From a phage, in sequence record OZ335959.1: a stretch of 64,000 nt of DNA; one strand, 5' to 3'. The translations under genes and the position numbers were made by a program. This document shows, one piece after another, positions 30,501 to 30,868 of the stretch. Numbering within the stretch: position 1 is the stretch's first letter; each line of letters starts with the position of its first letter. The notes beneath the pieces are model-generated. The model saw only the letters and a list, made by a program, of their open reading frames with translations, was not told the DNA's origin and searched no databases.

Positions 30501-30868
30501 ATTCTACATTTGTCCGTGATGTTTATGTCCGTTCTGATATTCGCGTTAAAAAAGACCTCGTTAAATTTGAAAATGCTTCTCAGAAGCTTTCTAAAATTAA
30601 CGGTTACACTTATATGCAGAAGCGAGGCCTGGATGAGGAAGGTAATCAGAAATGGGAACCTAACGCCGGTTTAATTGCTCAAGAAGTTCAAGCTATTTTA
30701 CCAGAATTAGTTGAAGGCGACCCTGATGGTGAAGCTTTACTTCGTTTGAACTATAACGGTGTAATTGGTTTAAATACAGCTGCAATCAATGAGCATACTG
30801 CAGAAATTGCAGAACTTAAATCAGAAATCGAAGAACTTAAAAAAATAGTTAAATCATTGTTAAAATAA
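27557..30868 (+). CDS. 37: long tail fibre distal subunit gp37 with C-terminal intramolecular chaperone (self-cleaving) domain
   Basis: 1103-aa ORF; C-terminus has SDIRVK...NGYTY...[15 protein letters not shown] signature of the autoproteolytic chaperone domain. Confidence 0.9.

Follow-up and report, generated by a model that had tools for sequence, protein, structure and literature searches.

A Peptidase_S74 chaperone domain at the C-terminus of the long tail fibre protein gp37 of a T-even phage, predicted to be cleaved off before capping by the gp38 adhesin

We analysed a stretch of phage DNA of 64,000 nucleotides (sequence record OZ335959.1; hereafter the window), which is a genome segment of a T-even phage (Tequatrovirus) and includes gene 37 for the distal fibre subunit gp37. 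The protein ends in an intramolecular chaperone (IMC) domain that belongs to the Peptidase_S74 family, formed by residues 993-1103. Very likely, this domain is a C-terminal chaperone that cleaves itself off at Arg992/Ser993 and is released, and the fibre tip is then capped by the adhesin gp38. What we observed directly are the domain with its motifs, predicted fold and position, and the gp38 gene next to it. Our analysis supports the overall interpretation of an initial annotation of the same DNA, which had placed a self-cleaving chaperone domain at this site.

Pfam family PF13884 (Peptidase_S74, "chaperone of endosialidase") aligns to gp37 residues 993-1052 with profile positions 1-57 of 58. 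The match reaches E = 2.3e-12 and 47.4 bits when whole gp37 is searched, and E = 4.8e-14 and 52.8 bits for the 111-residue piece alone, at a curated gathering cut-off of 22 bits. This homology had been proposed on the basis of three motifs of a Ser-Lys chaperone domain, all of which are present where they had been placed. Likewise, codon 993 (TCT) occupies 30533-30535 and exactly 111 amino acids extend to the end of the protein, in agreement with the proposed fibre end just before Ser993 at nucleotide 30533 and a tail of about that length. A phmmer search with the single sequence against all PDB sequences identified chain A of 6F45, i.e., gp37 of Salmonella phage S16, at E = 1e-38; its matches were confined to S16, MyRF and one tail fibre. 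A profile derived from an alignment of 22 homologues retrieved the intramolecular chaperone autoprocessing (ICA) domain of MyRF (7DC3; E = 2e-10), the tail fibre 8JOV (E = 6e-6) and, as a weak match, the IMC of the neck appendage of Bacillus phage GA-1 (3GUD; E = 0.03), whose crystallised chain starts at the residue equivalent to Ser993. Within this alignment, Ser993 and Asp994 are each conserved in 19 of the 22 sequences, Arg996 in 18 and Lys998 in 20, and no variation is seen in GLIAQ, in P-E or in the Tyr of "NY". gp37 retains the full motif set, and its IMC sits at the extreme C-terminus of a tail fibre protein, as is typical of the family. A scan of all six frames of the window with the profile found no second copy of the domain, e.g., on gp34. 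Three members of the alignment (P0025, P0028 and P0029) are short bacterial or prophage proteins that share the C-terminal two-thirds of the domain, carry unrelated N-termini and lack the SD.R.K motif; probably, these are truncated or recombined remnants of prophage tail fibres.

The fold of the domain was predicted with AlphaFold2 for gp37 residues 943-1103 (161 amino acids) as a monomer, employing the same alignment. The predicted local distance difference test (pLDDT) score is about 86-98 across the domain; the ~35 residues preceding it, which would need the trimer to fold, score below 50. The model consists of a short helix, a β-hairpin, a second short helix, two short β-strands and a C-terminal helix of 37 residues. 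Such a small α/β-unit followed by a long helix is characteristic of the Peptidase_S74 fold, and by analogy with T5 three such helices may associate into the central coiled coil of a chaperone trimer. A Foldseek search with the model returned 7DC3 (E = 4e-6) and next the K1F endosialidase IMC 3GW6 (E = 0.05, probability 0.92). The IMCs of K1F and T5 were reached by fold comparison only, and that of GA-1 weakly by profile.

The second component is the adhesin. The initial annotation had assigned capping of the fibre to a separately encoded gp38, and the open reading frame (ORF) at 30900..31679 indeed encodes such a protein. It contains the Pfam domains Gp38_N at residues 1-40 (profile positions 1-40 of 40; E = 1.8e-21) and GP38 at residues 45-259 (E = 5e-72). 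S16 gp38 (6F45_D) is matched over the full length (E = 4e-53), and residues 37-259 differ from the receptor-binding domain of PP01 gp38 (9V85) by a single S/N exchange near the C-terminus. The architecture of an N-terminal attachment domain followed by a glycine-rich receptor-binding domain is that of T2/S16-type adhesins. Correspondingly, gp37 ends in the IMC and lacks a T4-like tip, and gp38 matches the adhesin families, not the T4 gp38 chaperone. The receptor of the PP01 domain is OmpC of E. coli O157 (PMC12892980). Because the two receptor-binding domains differ by only one residue, OmpC is the predicted receptor of the present phage as well.

In the program-made list of ORFs, g38 begins at TTG 30888. 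We rejected this start, which lies inside the hairpin and ribosome-binding region between the genes, for ATG 30900, which is preceded by GGAGG and from which Gp38_N aligns from profile position 1. The annotated gp38 proteins of phages AR1 and T2 begin with the same MAV/MAI, in line with this choice. The intergenic hairpin has a folding energy of -14.1 kcal/mol (z-score against shuffled sequences, only -1.3) and is put forward here for its conservation alone: it is identical in AR1 and kept in T2 with a different stem, GAGGGC-UUCG-GCCCUC. As no long U-run follows it, the hairpin does not resemble a simple terminator.

How the domain might act can be outlined from its homologues, on which the proposed chaperone role, self-cleavage at Arg992/Ser993, fragment release and gp38 docking are modelled. 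The IMC would bring the three gp37 chains into register through its mixed α/β-part and its long trimeric coiled-coil helix, and folding of the trimeric, β-structured tip would be nucleated by it, starting at the C-terminus. After correct folding of the tip, Lys998 would activate Ser993 for attack on the Arg992-Ser993 bond in every chain, upon which the 111-residue chaperone trimer would leave the fibre. Because DVYVR992^S993DIRVKK (^, scissile bond) aligns with the sites of S16 and of the Yersinia fPS phages, the predicted last residue of the mature fibre is Arg992, with 111 residues removed.

In the T5 fibre protein pb1, Ser1264 has its hydroxyl positioned beside Lys1269, and only in the correctly folded trimer is the oxyanion hole completed by an arginine of the neighbouring chain (PMC4690869). 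The Thr1263-Ser1264 bond is cut, a Ser1264Ala variant remains uncleaved as recombinant protein in E. coli, and the α/β-domain of the IMC flanks a central trimeric coiled coil (PMC4690869). According to the passages of that report on infection, the uncleaved mutant fibre fails to compete. For S16, the relevant passages of two reports describe autocleavage of the last 113 residues of gp37 after trimerisation (PMC7917993, PMC7289586), and those of the former locate the cut between two serines, DLNVS^SDRRIKK, and state that it uncovers the surface on which gp38 docks (PMC7917993). Cleavage of the fPS phages was predicted at the aligned site DVYIR^SDGRLKI, DVYIR being the strand that remains at the tip (PMC7917993). 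The sections that deal with K1F, T5 and S16 state that the domain is needed for trimerisation and folding of the fibre tip (PMC4690869, PMC7289586). For T2 and T6, gp37 is described as "proteolytically cleaved" (PMC3157838).

We weighed this reading of gp37 against several others. It is very unlikely that the fragment has a second role after cleavage, e.g., in controlling whether or when gp38 is loaded, or that the coding block of the IMC and the gp38 N-terminus form a conserved recombination cassette through which phages exchange shafts and adhesins. The 98-100% identity of the IMC to that of AR1 beside a mosaic shaft of 70-90% would fit such a proposal, and ordinary purifying selection explains it equally. 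Very unlikely as well is a genuine IMC homologue that aids trimerisation but is cut in trans by a protease of the host or the phage instead of its own Ser-Lys pair. The account of T2 and T6 cited above states "proteolytically cleaved" and nothing more, and our computed results fit cutting in trans and self-cleavage alike. However, Ser993 and Lys998 are conserved exactly at the catalytic positions, a single Ser-to-Ala exchange blocks cleavage of recombinant T5 pb1 in E. coli (PMC4690869), and the S16 IMC, 57% identical to that of gp37, is described as autocleaved in the passages on its processing (PMC7917993, PMC7289586).

We judge it equally improbable that the virion keeps the domain as a lasting cap or coiled-coil knob at the C-terminus of gp37, with gp38 binding elsewhere or alongside. 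The short bacterial or prophage proteins without SD.R.K show that there are remnants of the domain that do not cleave. However, the IMC of gp37 has the full motif set, and its DVYVR^SD context matches the S16 and fPS sites that the corresponding passages report or predict to be cleaved (PMC7917993). The same source describes, where it treats the S16 tip, docking of the gp38 attachment domain to the surface exposed by IMC removal, and the uncleaved T5 fibre does not compete for infection, as stated in the respective passages of PMC4690869. Both cutting in trans and retention are thus disfavoured by the catalytic pair, the cleavage-site context and the homologue data. Finally, a chance or low-complexity coiled-coil match to an ordinary fibre end has a negligible probability: the last ~40 residues are a heptad-like helix that alone gives weak coiled-coil matches (NEMO, RevCC; E >1) and was masked by tblastn (80% coverage), but Pfam matches the non-helical residues 993-1052 at two-fold the curated threshold, and sequence, profile and fold searches converge on one family, ruling out such an artefact.

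Some points weigh against self-cleavage of gp37 as outlined here. The 1986 paper on T2 reportedly estimated a fragment of ~120 residues from gels, versus the 99 predicted from its sequence. The Foldseek match to 3GW6 is marginal when taken alone. The model is that of a monomer, in which the trimeric coiled coil and a "folding sensor" arginine between subunits of the T5/K1F type are not locatable. Moreover, the Arg-Asp pair at positions -6/-5 of the site is common to S16 but absent from T2, and for this phage the processing is a prediction from sequence, model and homologues.

Gene 37 lies in a long-tail-fibre cluster whose gene order and sizes agree with the annotated AR1 and T2 records (Table 1); synteny and identity with these phages define gp37 as the distal subunit. 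Its residues 450-550 match Pfam Gp34_trimer, and the gene terminates in a double stop, TAA TAA (30866-30871). Beyond holin gene t, asiA and the subsequent genes are on the minus strand. No ORF of at least 50 amino acids overlaps 30533-30868 on the opposite strand, and the sole other ORF overlapping the domain interval, an out-of-frame plus-strand ORF of 60 amino acids (30492..30674), is unsupported. Over the 3' end of g37 and g38, the closest database phages are ECp13 (98.0%), KNP5 (97.8%), Sfk20 (97.5%) and AR1 (94.8%). Motifs of the T4-type late promoter (TATAAATA) are located on the plus strand directly upstream of g34 (21794-21801) and g36 (26861-26868). Such a promoter was sought before g38 and not found, and none precedes g37 either. 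The presence of the motif before g36 and its absence before g37 and g38 suggest that the three genes are co-transcribed; across the whole window, the motif occurs 7 times versus 9 expected, i.e., not above chance.

Table 1 Features of the gp37 chaperone domain and its surroundings (positions in the window).
Feature	Position	Strand	Basis or remark
Intramolecular chaperone (IMC)/Peptidase_S74 domain, gp37 residues 993-1103, 111 amino acids	30533..30865	+	Stop codon 30866-30868
Ser993, predicted to act as nucleophile and to begin the released fragment; cut at Arg992-Ser993	30533..30535 (TCT)	+	Pfam profile position 1
Lys998, predicted to be the general base in the Ser-Lys pair	30548..30550	+	Five residues past Ser, T5 spacing
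DVYVR, residues 988-992, predicted end of the mature fibre, part of the gp38 docking tip	30518..30532	+	Homology
Long C-terminal helix, residues 1066-1102, predicted trimeric coiled coil	30752..30862	+	AlphaFold helix at 124-160 of query, pLDDT 91-98
GAGGGGC-UUCG-GCCCCUU hairpin with C(UUCG)G tetraloop	30872..30889	+	Between g37 double stop and g38 GGAGG; minimum free energy structure
g34	21836..25705	+	Long-tail-fibre cluster
g35	25714..26829	+	Long-tail-fibre cluster
g36	26892..27548	+	Long-tail-fibre cluster
Gene 37, distal subunit of the long tail fibre, precursor of 1103 amino acids	27557..30868	+	ORF; AR1 collinearity; Pfam
g38, T2-type adhesin, 259 amino acids, predicted to cap processed gp37	ATG 30900..31679	+	Pfam Gp38_N and GP38; PDB 6F45_D, 9V85
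Holin gene t	31710..32366	+	3' of g38

A tblastn search located the domain in 989 phage records, 177 of which are at least 95% identical. Our finding is the correct reading of an already known feature of the T2/S16 type. Processing has been published for T2, T6, S16 and the fPS phages, as the pertinent passages of PMC3157838, PMC7917993 and PMC7289586 indicate. For T2, gp37 processing and gp38 capping go back to the 1980s (Drexler, Riede and Henning 1986, as quoted in a passage of PMC3157838), and the S16 tip structure dates from 2018 (Dunne et al. 2018, as quoted in passages of PMC7917993 and PMC7289586). The value of the assignment lies in annotation and fibre engineering, and it raises no open biological question. 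For annotation, mature gp37 should be taken to end, as predicted, at Arg992. Therefore, recombinant fibres or host-range swaps should keep the IMC in the construct and match the N-terminal subtype of gp38.

Among the closest known systems is S16 gp37 (the 6F45 construct), which is the same gene in the same position with a downstream gp38 adhesin as partner. The two IMCs share 57% identity across 111-112 residues with a single one-residue gap, and the S16 site S^SDRRIKK aligns with R^SDIRVKK, including the "RD" pair at -6/-5 in both. In contrast, the scissile bond is preceded by Ser in S16 and by Arg here, the upstream fibre shafts are unlike, and host specificity differs because the receptor-binding loops of gp38 are of the PP01 type here.

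In the Tequatrovirus phages AR1, PP01, KNP5 and ECp13, gp37 is essentially the same protein (DNA identity of 93-98% over the 3' end of g37 and g38). AR1 gp37 is collinear; 50-residue blocks of the shaft form a mosaic of 70-100% identity, and the last 150 residues (tip and IMC) are 98-100% identical. A single Q/E difference in the last 111 amino acids leaves nothing distinctive in the IMC described here. T2 gp37 likewise carries a C-terminal PF13884 domain (E = 1.5e-16), which starts at ...NVYIR^SDIRLK, 99 residues from the end, and is followed, as here, by a gp38 adhesin gene and a similar UUCG hairpin. However, its IMC is only 34% identical, and only the first 50 residues of gp37 are conserved (94%); the predicted fragment comprises 99 amino acids versus 111, and gp38 has the other N-terminal subtype. 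T2 gp37 has been reported to be non-functional with PP01 gp38 (PMC12892980). Judging from sequence, the T-even phages comprise at least two subtypes of IMC and gp38 N-terminus, because the T2 IMC is 34% identical and that of AR1 98-100%.

More distantly, the ICA domain of MyRF (7DC3) belongs to a eukaryotic membrane-bound transcription factor, not to a virion fibre, and its cleavage frees the transcription factor, not a chaperone; the link to gp37 is of evolutionary interest alone. The IMCs of K1F endosialidase (3GW6), T5 pb1 (4UW8) and the GA-1/phi29 neck appendage (3GUD) show 12-21% sequence identity. The T5 IMC consists of 134 amino acids and embraces the tip with long β-hairpin "tentacles", whereas the 111-residue domain of gp37 lacks them. 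In K1F, T5 and GA-1/phi29, binding or digestion of the receptor falls to the mature tip; the gp37 fibre, in contrast, receives its adhesin as a separate protein.
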